From positions 19,150 through 83,149 of the forward strand of contig DATJXC010000008.1 in NCBI GenBank assembly GCA_035500495.1: a DNA stretch of 64,000 bases. The letters run 5' to 3'. Positions 11,572-40,189 of the stretch are shown here, piece after piece. The translations under genes and the position numbers were made by a program. Every line of letters begins with the position of its first letter. Within the stretch, counting starts at the first letter, position 1. This DNA comes from Gemmatimonadales bacterium. Lineage in GTDB: Bacteria > Gemmatimonadota > Gemmatimonadetes > Gemmatimonadales > GWC2-71-9. Below the pieces are notes generated by a model that had not been told where the DNA came from, did no database searches, and saw only the letters and a list, made by a program, of their open reading frames with translations.

Positions 11572-12252
11572 TCACTCGAATCCCGTGGCGCGTCCGCACC
11601 CGATGCAGTACGCCCATCCCACGTCCACTTCGCTACCGCACGCGGGGCACTTCAGCTCGCCGGATGGCGGCTGGCCGCAATGCGGGCAGAAGTTGACCTT
11701 GCGGGACGTGGGAAGGGAGCCGCCGCAGTAGGGGCATTGATTGGGCGCGTGCGCCTCGGTGTCGGCCAGCTCGAAGGTCGGCTCAGAATGGGGAGAGGGG
11801 AGAGGGGAGAGGGAAACCGGCGGGATCGGGTTTTCTGACGTCCAACTGATCGGCTCGCTCTCGTCTTCCGCTTCGGCGGACGCCTCGACCGGCGGCGCGA
11901 ACGCGGCCTGTCCCCGCAGGAATCGCTCGGCCGCCATGCGGTTCACCAGCACGCGGCTGTCGGGAAAGTTCCGGAACAGACCGGTCTCCGGATTGACCGC
12001 CGTGACTTCCCGCTGGAAGCCTTCGCGCACGTCGTCCGGATCGAGGTGCACATAAGACCGCTCACCGGCGAGCAGGCGCAGCACCGTCATCTCGTAATCC
12101 TGATGGCTCGCCACGCGCAGCGTCGAGCGGTTGGAGCGATACGGGACGAGCCGCTCGTAGACCTCGGACGCCGCGAACGGAATGGCGAGCCGCGCGTCCT
12201 TGGCCAGCGCCCGCACCAGCAGCTCGAATAGCCGATCCAGTTCGTCAGGCAT
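11572..12252 (-). CDS. Hypothetical protein with a C-terminal double zinc-ribbon
   Basis: C-terminus CPYCGGSL...FCPHCG...KCPACGSEV...YCIGCG. The linker contains a heptamer-array-encoded segment (PVSLSPLPSPHS). Confidence 0.6.
   Translation of the reverse strand: MPDELDRLFELLVRALAKDARLAIPFAASEVYERLVPYRSNRSTLRVASHQDYEMTVLRLLAGERSYVHLDPDDVREGFQREVTAVNPETGLFRNFPDSRVLVNRMAAERFLRGQAAFAPPVEASAEAEDESEPISWTSENPIPPVSLSPLPSPHSEPTFELADTEAHAPNQCPYCGGSLPTSRKVNFCPHCGQPPSGELKCPACGSEVDVGWAYCIGCGRATGFE
11790..11817. repeat. Single-arm tandem heptamer array (GGGGAGA)3 + GGGAAAC inside a CDS
   Basis: Plus strand reads ggggaga ggggaga ggggaga gggaaac, within gene 11572..12252. A degenerate complementary stretch (ctcgctctcgtcttccgcttc) follows about 40 nt to the right. 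Confidence 0.7.
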
Positions 12253-24188: not shown

Positions 24189-26489
24189 ATGAGCTTCCGT
24201 CGAGCGCCTATCATCTATCTGGCTCTGGTCGGCGCCATGATTCCGGACCTGGGCGCGGCCCAGAACGTGGCCGATCTCCAGGTGGCGCCGCCCTCGGTGA
24301 CGATCAAGGTGGGCGAACGCACCGGCCTTCTGGCCACCGCTTTTGATCGAGCGGGCAACGTGATTCCGACCGCCCGGATCACCTGGTCTTCCAACAACGT
24401 CAAAGTCGCTCGCGTGGACAACAACGGCACGGTGGTCGGCGTGTCCGGGGGGACCGCGTTGATCCAGGCGACCGCGGGTCAACGGAAGGGCTCGGTCGTC
24501 GTTCAGGTGACGGGGACGGCGGCTCCCGCCGAACCGGCGGCCAGCCCTGGTCAGCCGGCTCCCGTCGTCGCTGCGCCGGCCGCCGCCGCGGGCAACGACG
24601 CCTACGCCGGTCAACCCGCGGGTGTCGGCGCCCCGGCCGCGCTGCGCATCGACCCGCCCACGATCTACCTGCTGCCCTCTGAGAACATGCGTGTCTTCCC
24701 GCGCGCGCTGCGGGAGGACGGCTCGCCCGCCGCGCCGGTGCAGGTAACCTGGAAGTCGCTCAAGGAAGATGTCGCGAGCGTCGATGCGAACGGCAACGTG
24801 GTCGGGCTCGCCGCGGGTCAGGGAACGGTGCTGATGACCGGGCCGGGGGGGCTGACGGCGACCGCGCCGGTGATCGTCGATCAAGCGGAATTCAGCATCC
24901 TGGAGGGAACCTCGGTCACGCTATCCCCCGGCGACCTGGATACCATGCATGTGATCGTCCGGTCGCAGGGCAACCGGCTGGTCAGTGCCCTCGCTTCGCT
25001 CCAATGGACTTCGAGCGATCAGAGCGTGGCGCAGGTGAGCCTCACGGGTGTGGTGAAGGCCGTCGGCTCAGGGAAGGCGACCCTCACCGCAGCCGGCCTG
25101 CGCCAGCAGAAATCCATCGACATCCTGGTGCACCGCGCGGTGGAAGCCTTGGCGGTGCGGCCCAAAGCCTCCGCCGATGTCCCAGTGCCCCTCACCGCCG
25201 TCGTGCGGTTCTTCGCGCAACCGCTTGCGGCCGACAACAATCCGGTCCCCGAGGCCAAGATTCGGTGGGTCCTCGCGGATACCACGATTGCGTCCTTCGA
25301 CACGACGACCGGCGCGTTGACGGGGCGGAAGATCGGGCGGACGCAGCTCACCGCGCGGGGCCCCGGAGCCCAGCCCGCGACGGCCACCTGGAACGTCAAT
25401 GTGATCGCGGGCGCCGTGAAGCTTGCCGCCGTGAGGCTGGGGTTGGTTCAAGGGGGCCGCACCACCCTGAAGGCGAGCTTCGCCGACGATTCCGGTACGA
25501 TACTCGGCCCCGCCACCGGGCTCTCATGGTCGTCGGATGCGCCGGCGGTCGCGACGGTCGGAGAGGACGGAACGGTTTCCGGAGTGGCCTACGGTCGTGC
25601 CCGCATCACCGCGACCGCCCCTGGAGGGAAAACCGCCAGCGCCGTCGTCTTCGTTGGCGCCGAGCTGGTGGTGGCGAGCACGCGCGGCGGGAAGCCGCAG
25701 CTCTATTGGGTGGACCGGCAGAACCTGGCCGACCTGCACCGGGTCACCGCGCCCCAGGACACCGCCGTGGCCGGCGATCCCGCCTTCTCCCCCGACGGCT
25801 CGCGCATCGCCTTCGTCTCGACGCGGGACGGCAACCCCGACATCTACGTGATGGACGCGGACGGGTCGAGCCCGCTCCGCCTCACCACCGATCCCCAGGC
25901 CGACGGACATCCGGTGTTTTCAGCCGATGGTAACACGGTTTTCTTCCACTCCCAGCGCACCGGGAAGTCGCAGATCTACTCCGTCGGGATCGATGGGAGC
26001 GGGCTCAAGGTCCTCACAACCGATTCGGTGAGCCAGACGCCGGCGGTGTCGCCGGACGGGCGGACCGTCGCCTACGTGTCGTTCCGGAACAAGAGCTACG
26101 ACGTCTGGCTGATGTCGCCCGACGGATCCAACCAGCGGGCGTTCACGCGGACGGCGGCGCCGATGCAGGAAGTGGAGCCGCGATTCCTGCGGGACGGCTC
26201 CTTGCTCTACGTGCAGGAACGCCGGGAGGCCAACAAGACCGTTCGGCAGGTGATCAAGGCCGACCTGGCGACCGGCACGACGACACCGGTCACGGGCACC
26301 GAGCAGTGGATCAGCTCCTTTGCCGCCTCTCCGGCGGGCGACGTCCTGGCGCTCGTGGTCCCCGGGGACCCCGACAACAAGAAGAACCCCATGGCGCGGA
26401 TCTTCCTCCAGCCCGTAAGCGGCGGCACTCCGGTGCAGATCCCGACCACCGGGGCGGAGCAGACCCTCGCGCCCGCCTTCCTGCCCTAG
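24189..26489 (+). CDS. Secreted protein with multiple Big_2 (bacterial Ig-like) domains and a C-terminal TolB-like PD40 beta-propeller
   Basis: Repeated VARVDNNGTV.G...G.A.I.AT-type Big_2 modules, then PD40 repeats (PAFSPDGSRIAFVSTRDGNPDIYVMDADGS, PVFSADGNTVFFHSQRTG). Start moved to ATG 24189; the track starts at TTG 24150. Confidence 0.8.
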   Translation: MSFRRAPIIYLALVGAMIPDLGAAQNVADLQVAPPSVTIKVGERTGLLATAFDRAGNVIPTARITWSSNNVKVARVDNNGTVVGVSGGTALIQATAGQRKGSVVVQVTGTAAPAEPAASPGQPAPVVAAPAAAAGNDAYAGQPAGVGAPAALRIDPPTIYLLPSENMRVFPRALREDGSPAAPVQVTWKSLKEDVASVDANGNVVGLAAGQGTVLMTGPGGLTATAPVIVDQAEFSILEGTSVTLSPGDLDTMHVIVRSQGNRLVSALASLQWTSSDQSVAQVSLTGVVKAVGSGKATLTAAGLRQQKSIDILVHRAVEALAVRPKASADVPVPLTAVVRFFAQPLAADNNPVPEAKIRWVLADTTIASFDTTTGALTGRKIGRTQLTARGPGAQPATATWNVNVIAGAVKLAAVRLGLVQGGRTTLKASFADDSGTILGPATGLSWSSDAPAVATVGEDGTVSGVAYGRARITATAPGGKTASAVVFVGAELVVASTRGGKPQLYWVDRQNLADLHRVTAPQDTAVAGDPAFSPDGSRIAFVSTRDGNPDIYVMDADGSSPLRLTTDPQADGHPVFSADGNTVFFHSQRTGKSQIYSVGIDGSGLKVLTTDSVSQTPAVSPDGRTVAYVSFRNKSYDVWLMSPDGSNQRAFTRTAAPMQEVEPRFLRDGSLLYVQERREANKTVRQVIKADLATGTTTPVTGTEQWISSFAASPAGDVLALVVPGDPDNKKNPMARIFLQPVSGGTPVQIPTTGAEQTLAPAFLP

Positions 26490-36406: not shown

Positions 36407-37543
36407 ATGGTCCCCCCCCGGCAGCTCCTGCTCGCCGCCCTGGTCCTGGGCGGCTGCGCCAAGAACCCTCCAGCGTCCGCCCAGCAGATCCCGGCCGACT
36501 TTCAACCGCACGTGGTCGCGGATAACCGCCTGCTGTATCTCCCGCCAGGCTTCAAGATCGGCCTCTACGCCCAGCACCTGGACGGGATCCGCAACATCGT
36601 GCTCGGCCCCGGCGGCGTCCCCTACGCGGTCTACCGCACGGGCAGCGTCGTGAAGCTCCCCGACACCAACGGCGACGGCGTGGCCGACACGGTCATCACC
36701 GTCGTCTCCGGTTTGAACCGTCCCTTCGGCCTCGCGTTCCGTGGAGACACCATGTACGTGGGGGAGACCGACGGGGTGAAGCGGTACCTGCCGGGTAATT
36801 CGGTGCCGCAGCAGATCGTCTCAGGGCTACCGGGCGGCGGCAACCATTGGACCCGGACACTCGCCTTCGGGCCGGACGGAAAGCTGTACGTCTCGATCGG
36901 GTCCTCCTGCAACATCTGCGACGAGACCGACCGGCACCGCGCCACGGTCACGCGGTACAACTCCGACGGATCGGGCGAGCACATTTTCGCCACCGGGTTA
37001 CGAAACTCCGTGGGCCTCGCGTTCAATCCCACGACGGGCGAGCTCTGGGCCACGAACAATGACCGGGACAACCTGGGCGACGACCGGCCTCCTGAGAAGA
37101 TCAACATCTTGAAGGACGGCAGATTCTACGGCTGGCCGACCTGCTGGCTCCCCGGCGAGCGCAATCCGGAGTACCCGCAGGCCGACTGTAGCACCGTCCA
37201 GCCGCCGGCCATTACCTACCAGGCGCACTCGGCGCCGCTCGGGATGGCGTTCTACACGGGAACGCAGTTTCCCGCTGATTACCGGGGCGATGCATTCGTG
37301 GCGTTCCACGGATCGTGGAATCGGTCGGTCCCAACGGGAGACAAGGTGGCCCGGTTCCGGGTGAAGGACGGGAAGCCGGTGGGGCTCGAGGACTTCATCG
37401 TCGGGTGGCAGCTCCCGAACGGGAGCCGCTGGGGGCGGCCCGTGGCGATACTCGTCATGCCGGATGGGGCGATGCTCGTCTCGGACGACGATGGAGCGCG
37501 GGTGTGGAGGGTGGCATACGGGGAACAGCGGGATAAGCAATGA
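36407..37543 (+). CDS. PQQ-dependent sugar dehydrogenase (soluble aldose/sorbosone dehydrogenase family), lipoprotein
   Basis: MVPPRQLLLAALVLGGC lipobox, then beta-propeller SGDH-like sequence (GPDGKLYVSIGSSCNICDE, RNSVGLAFNP.TGELWATNNDRD). Only the last 378 codons of track ORF 35288..37543 are used. Confidence 0.82.
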   Translation: MVPPRQLLLAALVLGGCAKNPPASAQQIPADFQPHVVADNRLLYLPPGFKIGLYAQHLDGIRNIVLGPGGVPYAVYRTGSVVKLPDTNGDGVADTVITVVSGLNRPFGLAFRGDTMYVGETDGVKRYLPGNSVPQQIVSGLPGGGNHWTRTLAFGPDGKLYVSIGSSCNICDETDRHRATVTRYNSDGSGEHIFATGLRNSVGLAFNPTTGELWATNNDRDNLGDDRPPEKINILKDGRFYGWPTCWLPGERNPEYPQADCSTVQPPAITYQAHSAPLGMAFYTGTQFPADYRGDAFVAFHGSWNRSVPTGDKVARFRVKDGKPVGLEDFIVGWQLPNGSRWGRPVAILVMPDGAMLVSDDDGARVWRVAYGEQRDKQ

Positions 37544-37614
37544 CGGTACGCTGGGGGTGGGGGCGCCGTCGCGTGGGACGCCCGGCGCCCCCACCCCCAG
37601 CGTACTGTCGCTGC

Positions 37615-38937
37615 CTAGTGCCTGACGCGCTGTTCTACGATCCACGCCCGCGCGCGATCCAGCACTGCGTCCGTGCCCGCCTGAAACTCGCTCACCTTCT
37701 CATCGACCTTGATATCCGGCGCCAGGCCGCGCCCGTTGATTTCGGTTCGGTCGGGCAGCTCTTCACGGGTGATCGTCACGCGCAGACGCCAGTCTCGGTA
37801 AAGGGGAATTTCGCTGACCTGGCCGGTCGCTCCGGCGCTCGCGTGTCCGACGATCGTACCCCGCCCGGCGTTCCGAAACGCCGCGAGGAAATCCTCCGCC
37901 GCTCCGGCGGTGCGGGATGACGCGAGCACCGCGACGGGGCCCGTGAATCGGGGCTTGTCCTGCCGCGGCTGGATCGTGTCCGGTGGGATCGCCAGCCACA
38001 GAAAACTTGAGTCCGCACCCCCTTCGTCGCTGCGGTACAAGGGACGATAGACGGCGGTCTGCCATCGCGAGCCGACGAACGGTTTGCTGGCCAGGCGGGC
38101 GAGCAGCTGGTAGGCGATCTCCCGTCCACCGCCGGTGCCGCTGTTGTCGCGCAGGTCGATGATCAGCCCGTGGACGCCGTCCCAGGTCGGGAAGGCGTGG
38201 TCGATCTGCCGGATCACCTCGGGGTCGCTGAAGCTGGACAGATGGAGGACCGCCGTGCTGTCCTGCAGGCGGACGATGGCCAGGGCCGGTGGGTCGAACG
38301 GCCAGGGCGCGCCCTCGGCGATGGTCCGGGTGAGGCTCGCCCCACGGGCATCCATGCCCTGCGCCTGGAGCTGGAGCTGGAGGGCCGTGCCGCGCTCCCC
38401 GTCCAACAGGTGCGCGACGGCGCGATCCCACCGCGCGTCCGCCGTCCCGGCGCCGATCTCGGGGAGAATCGAATCGCGGATCCACTGGTCGGCCGGGATC
38501 CCCTGGACTGAGACGACCTCGGCGAGTCGTTCGGGGCGCGCGATGCTGGTCTCGTCGTTTTCCGTATAGTCCGTGATGAACGGACGCCCCTCGACGCTCA
38601 CGAGGGCGAGGGGCGGCCGCGCCAACTGGACCGCGACACGCGAGGGAGGGATCACCGCCGCCTGGCCGTCATTGAGCAGCGCAACGAAGCGCCGTAAGCG
38701 GCGGTAATAGAGGAGGTCCGGCTGGCGCTGGGCGGCCTGGCCGAGCAGGGCGGCGATGCCGGAGTCCAGGTCGGCGCGTACGCGGTCGCGCCCGGCGTAG
38801 TTATAGTGCGCTTCGGACCAGAGGGCGGCTGCGAGCCGAGCGCGCTCGACCGGGGTGAGCGTTTGTTGGCCCGCGCTCGTGGCTGGTCCCACGAGTCCGA
38901 GGAGCACGGCTCCCCACGAGGACCATCGGAGCGGCAT
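37615..38937 (-). CDS. S41-family peptidase (tail-specific protease-like), secreted
   Basis: Signal peptide MPLRWSSWGAVLLGLVGPATSAGQQ and an S41 core (LIIDLRDNSGTGGG, VAVLASSRTAGAAEDFLAAF). Confidence 0.8.
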   Translation of the reverse strand: MPLRWSSWGAVLLGLVGPATSAGQQTLTPVERARLAAALWSEAHYNYAGRDRVRADLDSGIAALLGQAAQRQPDLLYYRRLRRFVALLNDGQAAVIPPSRVAVQLARPPLALVSVEGRPFITDYTENDETSIARPERLAEVVSVQGIPADQWIRDSILPEIGAGTADARWDRAVAHLLDGERGTALQLQLQAQGMDARGASLTRTIAEGAPWPFDPPALAIVRLQDSTAVLHLSSFSDPEVIRQIDHAFPTWDGVHGLIIDLRDNSGTGGGREIAYQLLARLASKPFVGSRWQTAVYRPLYRSDEGGADSSFLWLAIPPDTIQPRQDKPRFTGPVAVLASSRTAGAAEDFLAAFRNAGRGTIVGHASAGATGQVSEIPLYRDWRLRVTITREELPDRTEINGRGLAPDIKVDEKVSEFQAGTDAVLDRARAWIVEQRVRH

Positions 38938-40189
38938 GGCGATAATCTATCTGCTTCTTCTTCTCTCGCCGCAGGTATTGCTGTACCTGTACCTGCGGGA
39001 GCGCCTCCCCGATCCGTCACGTCCCGGGCGGGTGCGTCTCGTCCGGCTGAGTCTCGCCATCGTCTTCGTCGTCTTCAACCTGCCGTGGCTCGTCGTCCTG
39101 CGTCGCATGCTGTCCGGGTCGGTGTGGGGGGTCGGCCGCGTCCCCTATCTCGCGCCCTGGATCGCGTGGCAGCTGCTCGGCTGGGTGTTTTGCGCGCTGG
39201 TCGCGGTGTACGTGATCGGGAAGAGTCTGGTGTGGGTGGGTCAGCGGCTCGTCAGGCTGGGGAGAGGGGAGAAGGGAGAGGGGGGAGGGCCTGCAACGGC
39301 GCGAACGCCTTCCCTCTTCCCTCTCCCCTCTCCCGTCTCCCGGATTACGCGGCGGCGCTTCCTCGCGACGGCCACCTATGCATATGCCGGTGCCGGGCTC
39401 GCGCTGTCAGGCTATGGCATCTGGGACGCCGAGCGTCTGCCGGATGTGACGCGCACGACCCTCTTCCTTCCCGGCCTGCCGCGCGCCTTCGACGGGCTGC
39501 GGGTGCTCCACCTGTCGGACGTGCACGCCGGGGTCCACATGGAGCGGGACAAAATGCAGGCGATCGTGGCGCTCGCGAACGCGGAACGTGCCGATCTGAT
39601 CCTCCAGACCGGCGACATGATCGACATCTCGCCCGCCTATGTTCCGGAGTACGTTCGCGCCTTTCGCGACCTCTCCGCTCCCCTGGGCGTCGTCACCTGT
39701 CTCGGCAATCACGATCGCTACACCGGCGAGACGATCGTCGTGAAGGGGGTGCGGGACGCCGGTCAGATCTTCGTCAAGAACTCCGCGCACCTGATCGAGC
39801 GGGACGGCGCCGTTCTGGCCCTCCTGGGAATCGACGACCCGCACGCCTGGACCGCCGACGATCCACAGCACGGCGACATCGACCTGGCGTTGCGCGCGGC
39901 GCCGAAAGAGGCCTACCCGATCCTGCTGGCCCACCGGCCGGGTGCGTTCGATGGGGCGGCGCCGCGCGGCATTCCGCTCACGTTGGCGGGGCACATTCAC
40001 GGCGGGCAGATCTACGTTCCGCTCTTGCGGTGGTCGGCGGGGAGCCTGATCACGAAGTACGTGATGGGACACTTCCGGCAGGGTTCGAGTCAGCTGTACG
40101 TGAGCCGGGGCATCGGGGTCGTCGGCGTGCCGATCCGGTTGTTTGTGCCGCCGGAGATCGCCCTGCTGCAGCTGCGGACGGCTGTCTAG
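38936..40189 (+). CDS. Membrane-anchored metallophosphoesterase (YkuE/YaeI-like calcineurin-fold)
   Basis: N-terminal TM segments and a Tat-like TRRRFLATATYAYAGAGLA. Motifs are LHLSDVHAG, TGDMID, LGNHD, LAGHIHGGQ. The start is uncertain, and an 84-nt heptamer hairpin sits in frame between the TM region and the RRRF motif. Confidence 0.8.
   Translation: MAIIYLLLLLSPQVLLYLYLRERLPDPSRPGRVRLVRLSLAIVFVVFNLPWLVVLRRMLSGSVWGVGRVPYLAPWIAWQLLGWVFCALVAVYVIGKSLVWVGQRLVRLGRGEKGEGGGPATARTPSLFPLPSPVSRITRRRFLATATYAYAGAGLALSGYGIWDAERLPDVTRTTLFLPGLPRAFDGLRVLHLSDVHAGVHMERDKMQAIVALANAERADLILQTGDMIDISPAYVPEYVRAFRDLSAPLGVVTCLGNHDRYTGETIVVKGVRDAGQIFVKNSAHLIERDGAVLALLGIDDPHAWTADDPQHGDIDLALRAAPKEAYPILLAHRPGAFDGAAPRGIPLTLAGHIHGGQIYVPLLRWSAGSLITKYVMGHFRQGSSQLYVSRGIGVVGVPIRLFVPPEIALLQLRTAV
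39259..39342. repeat. Inverted tandem-heptamer hairpin element inside a CDS: (GGGGAGA)4 + 18-nt spacer + (TCTCCCC)5
   Basis: Left arm is ggggaga ggggaga agggaga gggggga ggg (39259-39289). Right arm is ccttccc tcttccc tctcccc tctcccg tctcccg (39308-39342). Total 84 nt, i.e. 28 codons, translated as GRGEKGEGGGPATARTPSLFPLPSPVS. Confidence 0.9.

Follow-up and report, generated by a model that had tools for sequence, protein, structure and literature searches.

Why would a hairpin made of seven-nucleotide repeats lie in frame inside a gene for a membrane enzyme, and what keeps it there? The question is raised by a 64,000-nucleotide stretch of DNA from a Gemmatimonadales bacterium (NCBI GenBank assembly GCA_035500495.1, contig DATJXC010000008.1, positions 19,150 to 83,149 of the forward strand), which we call the window. 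At positions 39259-39342 of its + strand there is an 84-nucleotide (nt) inverted tandem-heptamer hairpin, with units of 7 nt, within the gene for a metallophosphoesterase. With a probability of about 75%, we believe that the element, translated and with no gene of its own, is one copy of a hairpin-repeat family dispersed through the genome, that it occupies a long-lived permissive site, and that it is maintained at the level of DNA, with the protein acting as a filter.

A heptamer hairpin inside a single gene

The gene starts with the ATG at 38936. Its parts are:

38936..40189, + strand: gene for a YkuE-type polytopic metallophosphoesterase, 417 codons, with the hairpin in frame inside it (open reading frame and translation)
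38936..39256, + strand: N-terminal membrane part, residues 1-107, three hydrophobic helices (hydropathy, AlphaFold, and many residues that are invariant among orthologs)
39259..39289, + strand: left G-rich arm of the hairpin, GGGGAGA GGGGAGA AGGGAGA GGGGGGA GGG (Tandem Repeats Finder, or TRF, and inverted-repeat arm)
39290..39311, + strand: loop of the hairpin, 22 nt, with a mini-stem of GGCG (39298-39301), CGAA, and CGCC (39306-39309); its translation is PATART
39312..39342, + strand: right C-rich arm of the hairpin, CCCTCTT CCCTCTC CCCTCTC CCGTCTC CCG (TRF and inverted-repeat arm)
39347..39412, + strand: twin-arginine motif T138-RRRFL-143 and a weakly hydrophobic fourth helix, residues 139-159 (alignment and AlphaFold)
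39497..40000, + strand: calcineurin-like metallophosphoesterase domain, residues 188-355 (Pfam; DxH, GD, GNHD, and GHxH motifs)

An earlier note, made from the sequence alone, had described an 84-nt inverted heptamer element at this position, and the sequence, TRF, a repeat finder, and the predicted fold all agree that it is real. At period 7, TRF reports 4.4 copies of GGGGAGA at 39259-39289 (87% matches) and 4.3 copies of the complementary CCCTCTC at 39312-39341. The repeat finder reports 30-nt arms (39260-39289 and 39312-39341) that are 87% complementary and are separated by 22 nt. Some details of the note need correction. It gave the arms as (GGGGAGA)4 and (TCTCCCC)5; the arrays are there, but only 2 of the 4 units on the left and 1 of the 5 on the right are perfect. 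The spacer measures 20-22 nt, where the note has 18 nt (and 28 + 18 + 35 does not sum to 84). Nor is the element an exact fit to 28 codons: the 84 nt are off codon alignment, as codons begin at 39257 and 39260, and residues L108-R136 are affected. The translation that was given, GRGEKGEGGGPATARTPSLFPLPSPVS, is right, and so is its placement between the membrane region and TRRRFL. The left arm is translated as GRGEKGEGGG and the right arm as SLFPLPSPVS(R).

As RNA, the hairpin has a predicted folding energy of -66 kcal/mol (z = -4.3), and none of 200 dinucleotide shuffles was as stable. The entire linker folds at -79 kcal/mol (z = -5.1), which beats all 59 windows of the same length from its own gene. 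There are no stop codons within the 84 nt in any of the six frames. The sense strand of the left arm matches a pattern for G-quadruplexes (the regular expression G3+N1-7 x4), and words like GGGGAGAGGGGAGA occur 9 times in the window, versus 1.3 expected. We found no target-site duplication flanking the 84 nt. As to an intrinsic terminator, there is no run of T after the stem (the next letters are GGATTACGCGG), and a terminator scan made no call. Against Rfam 15 there was no match at the gathering threshold; the only matches were to hairpins of miRNA-precursor models, at 18-42 bits where the thresholds are 47-168 bits.

The host protein appears to fit the polytopic YkuE-type architecture, and it is a candidate for dependence on twin-arginine translocation (Tat). 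Pfam's Metallophos (PF00149) matches residues 188-355 (E = 3.8e-10), and the invariant alignment columns of the catalytic domain are H192-LSD-H197, GDMID, and GNHD. By the Kyte-Doolittle (KD) scale, residues 1-21, 31-61, and 71-106 are hydrophobic, while AlphaFold places helices at residues 2-23, 30-60, 72-109, and 139-159. The first three helices exceed KD 1.4, whereas no 19-residue window of the fourth does. Just ahead of the fourth helix, R139, R140, F142, and L143 are invariant in 38 orthologs, and the Pfam model for the Tat signal of Rieske proteins matches residues 137-156 weakly (E = 0.0099, under the cut-off). The hairpin encodes residues 108-136, which form the cytoplasmic loop directly ahead of the twin-arginine motif. 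Between the helices at 72-109 and 139-159, AlphaFold gives a coil with predicted local distance difference test (pLDDT) scores below 50 at residues 113-137, and in the orthologs the columns of the linker are unalignable, between invariant blocks.

Tooke et al. 2017 (PMC5449189) described polytopic YkuE-like metallophosphoesterases as candidate dual substrates of Sec (the general secretory pathway) and Tat, and proposed that Sec inserts helices 1-3 while Tat handles helix 4 and the folded domain. Like those enzymes, our protein has three helices, a pair of arginines before a weak fourth helix, positive charges after it, and a phosphoesterase domain. The published members are from Firmicutes and Bacteroidetes, and no repeat hairpin was described in the loop before their arginines. 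Full-length orthologs of our protein are 66-79% identical to it, and they share its synteny (S41 peptidase on the - strand, metallophosphoesterase on the + strand, and TetR on the - strand). Distant paralogs among the order's phosphoesterases offer no basis for comparison, since their N-terminal architecture is a different one that lacks RRxFL. Several orthologs (P0006, P0007, P0010, P0011, P0109, and others) have C-terminal tails such as SPPTQPRSPAARPDGSRSTPS or GGQGGQGGRGGRGGQGG (alignment columns 478-524), as if the frame ran on into a repeat hairpin that lies downstream, between this gene and the convergent TetR gene.

Is this one gene or two? The earlier note had offered, as an alternative, that a small membrane protein ends at the hairpin and that a Tat-exported enzyme starts after it; the hairpin would then act as a terminator or insulator. 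This idea has some appeal: RRxFL resembles a Tat signal, and most hairpins of the family are intergenic (where the context could be determined, the neighbouring genes are co-directional for 32, convergent for 8, and divergent for 2). However, no stop codon interrupts the frame, the stretch from the hairpin to TRRRFL lacks any in-frame ATG, GTG, or TTG, and the stem is not followed by a run of T. Both flanks of the hairpin have the same-frame coding signature, with a GC content at third codon positions (GC3) of 0.89 and 0.86. Gene callers give full-length products, and the best 120 homologs all cover 99-100% of the protein. A single open frame crosses the site in 58 of the 301 genomes of the family, from 15 genera, and searching at the level of the genus brought in no further genomes. 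At the DNA level, about 50 of 52 loci read in frame, while one third would be expected without selection. The fused form, with arginines before the fourth helix of a polytopic YkuE, is a described family (PMC5449189). Because of the frame statistics, the missing start codon, and the missing terminator, we reject the two-gene reading, which we consider extremely improbable.

Just 2 of the roughly 52 loci are frame-shifted at the site, in both cases inside the hairpin, and these two orthologs have their halves in different frames, as a split gene would. They are L029 (genome G001, contig C4, near 221370-221470) and L099 (G112, contig C260). Each is from a single metagenome-assembled genome (MAG), and they could be real pseudogenes, split genes, or assembly errors in the repeats.

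Persistence and exchange of hairpins at the orthologous site

Conservation of the segment as protein in orthologs, which would have spoken against the earlier note, is not seen. The 28 codons were found only in this genome, and the peptide GEKGE is unique to it among 119 homologs. What the orthologs share is a hairpin. The linker has at least 27 residues in 113 of the 119 homologous proteins. At the DNA level, the same codon interval is taken up in nearly all of these by an inverted tandem-heptamer hairpin (15 genera), built from other units (GGGAGCN, GGTGCGT, GGTGCGC, GGGGNGT, GGGGTGT, GGGAMAC, and others). All of these cassettes begin at the same conserved arginine-glycine (R-G) codons. Among 47 orthologs whose genes we compared, 38 have linkers of at least 27 amino acids, and nearly all of those fold into stems with a 7-nt period. 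At 23 of the 33 loci that we scored, no window of the gene is as stable as the linker. The mean minimum free energy per nucleotide in linkers of at least 27 amino acids is -0.57, versus -0.40 for control windows, and their median z is -4.3. The other 9 of the 47 orthologs have short linkers without a hairpin. On the tree, these stemless linkers fall inside clades that bear hairpins, and remnants are left in some of them, which marks them as derived losses.

In light of these results, the earlier note's first idea, an in-frame insertion into a tolerant linker, holds up in part. The coding flanks, the disordered coil, and the dispersed unit family all support it. But "inserted" is too simple, because the site held such hairpins before about 15 genera diverged, and since then they have repeatedly been swapped, changed in size, and lost.

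The cassettes do not follow the gene tree. On a tree of the 47 genes that we built without the linker, the class of unit changes at least 24 times (the minimum possible is 8, and the mean for shuffled tips is 32). GGGAGCN and GGTGCGT need 6-7 events each. Two alleles from JGI (Joint Genome Institute) metagenome records, L038 and L039 (3300012918, contig Ga0137396, and 3300012203, contig Ga0137399), differ at 9 of 1118 nt outside the linker, so they are 99.2% identical, yet they carry unrelated cassettes, GGTGCGC and GGGGAGT. The block that is wholly different between them is about 115-155 nt long and reaches a few bases past the arms, as expected for recombination. There are also deletion derivatives at the site (L040 and L045). 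Cassettes of the same class share their loop sequence across genera, which implies that a few cassette lineages circulate at the locus.

The class of unit at the site also belongs to multi-copy, dispersed families of the same genome. For example, three tandem copies of GGGAGCN occur 43-111 times in 5 of the 8 sampled genomes that use GGGAGCN at the site, and 13-17 times in the other 3. Similarly, 5 of 9 user genomes have 10-23 copies of GTGCGTG-type arrays, versus 0-3 in non-users.

The hairpin family in this genome

The earlier note had stated that the same type of element fills intergenic gaps elsewhere, and this holds across the genome. Period-7 arrays are over-represented (483, versus 211 for period 6 and 178 for period 8), and we identified 75 inverted heptamer hairpin loci, with a median of 4.4 units per array. 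This one genome uses 142 canonical units. The commonest are AAGTGCG and AATCCGC, followed by GGGGAGA, whose 28 arrays are dispersed in the genome. In 73 of the 75 hairpins, the arm at the 5' side is G-rich and the one at the 3' side is C-rich (P = 1.5e-19, binomial test). Since this polarity is equal on both strands, the asymmetry is a real property of the element.

Most of the hairpins (67/75) are intergenic. The phosphoesterase copy is among the 8 that are intragenic, so it departs from what is a tendency of the family rather than a defining property. All eight lie in linkers or variable loops, of RarA, DnaG, EngB, DnaX, a SucA-like enzyme, HslU, FtsK, and the phosphoesterase. Among hairpins with purine-rich units, 8 of 18 are intragenic, versus 0 of 57 for the others (P = 2.6e-6, Fisher exact test). 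Avoidance of stop codons does not account for this bias, as AATCCGC and AAGTGCG are also stop-free in six frames. It is more likely that the filter is how well the peptide is tolerated. The in-frame hairpins in other genes are listed here (G000 is the label of the source genome in contig coordinates):

G000 C133:64352-64421: in EngB/YihA, unit GGGGAGA, peptide RRGEKGEERG...SPLPSPVS
G000 C12:22035-22088: in DnaG, purine-rich
G000 C19:8966-9119: in DnaX, purine-rich
G000 C93:41748-41855: in FtsK, purine-rich
G000 C56:10418-10481: in HslU, purine-rich
G000 C32:26007-26082 and 25231-25298: in the SucA-like gene, purine-rich
G000 C110:11184-11348: in RarA, purine-rich

The two arms in RarA and DnaX stand 107-109 nt apart, with coding sequence of their own between them.

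The loop in the GTPase EngB is a second site that behaves like the one in the phosphoesterase. The hairpin sits in the turn between PGKT and DLPGYG. In the EngB and phosphoesterase copies, irregular stretches of the arms agree at 20/20 nt in both arms, while the loops differ. At the EngB site in relatives (loci L070-L090), about 9 genomes have a bare turn of 42-54 nt, and 12 have in-frame hairpins with at least 7 different units, including GGGAGCN, GGGGAGT, GGGGATT, and GTGCGTG.

Larger hairpins of the same design enclose genes. All 7 PF05635 genes of the genome (23S-IVS-protein, or S23p/Avd-like, where IVS is intervening sequence) sit in the loop of a large hairpin, bracketed by arms in which units of 7, 8, 10, or about 17 nt form inverted tandem arrays. 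One of these cassettes uses ATTGCGG/AATCCGC, the second commonest unit, and AATCCGC also forms 24 hairpins that have no gene. The seven, all of them outside the window, are:

G000 C12:32323-32748: PF05635 gene
G000 C110:11889-12386: PF05635 gene
G000 C103:29400-29875: PF05635 gene
G000 C121:13950-14520: PF05635 gene
G000 C25:45600-46160: PF05635 gene
G000 C90:12990-13560: PF05635 gene
G000 C59:49800-50400: PF05635 gene

Intervening sequences of 23S rRNA and the PF05635 cassettes resemble our element in that an inverted-repeat stem brackets an insert; the phosphoesterase element differs in having a 22-nt loop with no open reading frame and in not being in rRNA. Since its loop holds no open reading frame, it would be at most a gene-less derivative of a PF05635 cassette. 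The link between PF05635 and heptamers in this genome is real, yet it does not yet explain the phosphoesterase element, and the literature that we searched had nothing linking PF05635 to heptamer arrays.

Two other repeats in the window deserve mention. At 11790-11813 there are 3.4 perfect copies of GGGGAGA, and the TRF output has no inverted period-7 partner nearby. At 37534-37617, where an upstream dehydrogenase-like gene and the S41 peptidase gene have convergent stops (37543 and 37615), the gap is taken up by an inverted repeat that is not made of heptamers (35-nt arms, 89% complementary, with a 14-nt loop).

What maintains the hairpin, and what it means

To see what is constrained, we compared the cassettes as DNA, as mRNA, and as protein. 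In the GGTGCGY cassettes, three units in a row have C-G in place of U-A at one and the same position, with both arms changed, so the arms evolve together and their complementarity is kept. Neither a codon-position signature nor codon adaptation is seen in the linker: its GC content at the three codon positions is 0.77, 0.67, and 0.71, versus 0.71, 0.48, and 0.90 elsewhere in the gene, and in 38 of 38 orthologs the linker has the lower GC3. The sense and antisense strands fold equally well (16 versus 21 cases, P = 0.68), with similar numbers of G-U pairs (79 versus 90). Because there is no asymmetry between the strands, the pairing is Watson-Crick on DNA and seemingly is not tuned for mRNA. This points to maintenance at the DNA level, not to a selected mRNA structure. 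We also considered the G-quadruplex as a conserved feature and rejected it: the pattern is present in this genome, but GGTGCGY and other cassettes at the site lack it.

These results suggest the following history. The 84 nt are a gene-less inverted heptamer hairpin whose larger relatives bracket the small PF05635 genes. A hairpin of the same design was probably present already in the ancestor that the orthologs, from at least 15 genera, have in common. From that time on, its units may have been homogenised one by one in both arms, it may have been resized (presumably by frame-preserving steps), and cassettes may have been swapped by recombination or gene conversion, with an occasional deletion or frame shift. 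The complementarity of the arms would be kept on DNA, likely by slippage together with template switching within the hairpin or by copying from other members of the family. The hairpin would be transcribed and translated with the gene, which would add about 28 disordered residues (glycine, glutamate, and arginine, and then proline, serine, and leucine) to a loop in which the exact sequence would be of no consequence. Selection on the protein would only filter the outcome, passing copies in which the frame is intact, stops are absent, and the low-complexity peptide is tolerable, which could be why only purine-rich units are found inside genes.

Several observations weigh against this account. 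The sharing of loops across genera can be explained by allelic recombination at this locus at least as well as by copying from other places in the genome. Neither a mechanism of mobility nor a target-site duplication was found for the hairpin, and none of the 7 PF05635 genes in the assembly is in a cassette with GGGGAGA arms. The long retention of a stem of -50 to -80 kcal/mol, with compensatory changes, is also what selection on structure would produce. Translation through the hairpin is judged from the conservation of the frame. Finally, the source genome is a MAG of 139 contigs, in which repeats could be mis-assembled, although the identical protein has been recorded twice, as member sequences that come from two contigs.

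The main alternative for a role in the host is that the mRNA structure is selected. The hairpin would be a ribosome pause or a processing site (for RNase III, for example) between helices 1-3, which Sec would insert during translation, and helix 4 with the metal-binding domain, which Tat would handle after translation, and it would time the hand-over from Sec to Tat. The pre-arginine loop is indeed the hand-over point in this published candidate family for dual Sec/Tat export (PMC5449189), most orthologs in the 15 genera keep a hairpin at that codon interval, usually as the most stable window (23/33), and both arms have compensatory changes. However, the antisense strand folds as well as the sense strand, G-U pairs are not enriched in the sense strand, and no Rfam family matched, with only generic hairpins below threshold. 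The 9 of 47 orthologs without a hairpin are derived losses, and the same behaviour is seen in EngB, DnaG, DnaX, HslU, and other cytoplasmic proteins, where there is no hand-over. The lack of strand bias, the repeated losses, and these unrelated proteins disfavour a host function such as a pause or a processing site, so we consider this reading unlikely, and the hairpin probably does nothing for the host. An alternative at the DNA level, which seems a little less likely again, is purely local expansion: a G-rich seed (the CGY-GGG codons of the R-G pair) would grow by slippage and fold-back copying, with no exchange. The shared start of every cassette at those codons favours this, as do GGGGAGA, GGGGAGC, and GGGGAGT, which differ at one base and are homogenised across units. 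Also, linker lengths include pairs that are 7 amino acids, or three units, apart (28/35 and 39/46), and papers that cite Mrazek et al. 2007 relate that it attributes the over-representation of heptamers in bacteria to slippage. But local growth would not explain why the unit class tracks the dispersed families of each genome, why the irregular 20-nt stretches of the arms are common to the phosphoesterase copy, the EngB copy, and others, why alleles that are otherwise nearly identical carry unrelated cassettes, or why cassette classes, including their loops, recur in distant branches.

We view phase variation as very improbable. Under this explanation, the gain or loss of a single heptamer would toggle the frame and switch the export-competent enzyme on or off. 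A step of 7 nt does shift the frame, the two frame-shifted orthologs are shifted exactly in the hairpin, and heptamer simple sequence repeats are reported to drive phase variation elsewhere, as in Haemophilus (PMC12721329). Yet the arrays, at about 4 units, are short as well as imperfect, the frame is kept at 96% of loci, and the shifted cases, each from a single MAG, may be assembly errors. A more speculative extension of DNA-level maintenance, doubtful though not far-fetched, is that the hairpins, rather than being passive debris, are the substrate of an active process of "hairpin-writing" or homogenising at the DNA level, which might involve the four-helix-bundle proteins of PF05635, with their genes in the loops of the largest hairpins. 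Existing hairpins would then be landing pads that are overwritten with whichever unit families are currently active in the genome. If so, the pre-Tat loop and the EngB loop would be stable intragenic landing pads, and the peptide would be a by-product that is rewritten repeatedly.

How does this compare to known repeats? Heptanucleotides are reportedly the commonest class of long simple sequence repeats in bacteria, which Mrazek et al. in 2007 are said to have attributed to slippage. The palindromic elements of Rickettsia (RPEs), which Ogata et al. in 2000 reportedly presented as "selfish DNA in protein-coding genes," are a parallel for in-frame elements. They are said to be palindromic repeats that lie in frame in many unrelated and often essential genes and are translated as surface segments, with function kept. 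They differ in being copies of 100-150 bp with a conserved consensus rather than arrays of short units, and the exchange of elements at one orthologous site is not known to be among their described features. Our family does not look like RPEs or MITEs (miniature inverted-repeat transposable elements) by their palindromes, either: copies share arm units and not loops, there is no flanking duplication, and the units differ between families.

Convergent heptamer arrays were described by Rehm et al. 2015 (PMC4692102) in Xanthomonas (GGGAATC) and in Nostoc/Anabaena (GGGGAYT; the short tandemly repeated repetitive, or STRR, class). Those arrays resemble ours in their 7-nt unit, in mostly having about 4 units, and in having dozens to hundreds of dispersed copies, with many close inverted pairs that could form stem-loops. 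Their units are likewise G-rich with G-quadruplex potential, and they lie mostly between co-directional genes, rarely between divergent genes, and occur less often than expected within coding sequence. GGGGATT, which fits the Nostoc pattern, is also used by one ortholog at the EngB site. In contrast, we see many unrelated units in one genome, and the copy that we studied is intragenic and in frame. The exchange of units at an orthologous site that keeps its hairpin, the co-variation of the arms, and the 73:2 polarity were not reported in that study. The tandem repeats of Borgs (PMC9879509) are similar in another way: they evolve fast, lie in frame, are stop-free, and are translated into low-complexity disordered segments, with constraint acting on the DNA first and on the protein second. 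However, Borg repeats are direct arrays whose intragenic units are usually multiples of 3, while ours are two inverted arrays that form a hairpin, and with a 7-nt unit, reading passes through the three frames one after another. The literature that we searched had nothing on repeats in Gemmatimonadota. Overall, it covers heptamer arrays, inverted pairs, and in-frame palindromes (the RPEs), and not the exchange of cassettes at a fixed orthologous site.

For arrays of this kind, the locus offers an uncommonly clear look at how they change, since the coding sequence on either side pins the site down across at least 15 genera. What was a vague class of "repeats" becomes a testable process, namely the maintenance of hairpins at the level of DNA and the reuse of sites. 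For annotators, there is a warning: hairpins like these inside open reading frames are neither gene boundaries nor assembly errors. For the study of Sec and Tat, the loop before the twin arginines of polytopic YkuE-type enzymes tolerates essentially any 20-50 residues. More broadly, non-coding repeat DNA routinely becomes disordered linkers in core genes, such as those for DnaG, DnaX, FtsK, HslU, and EngB.

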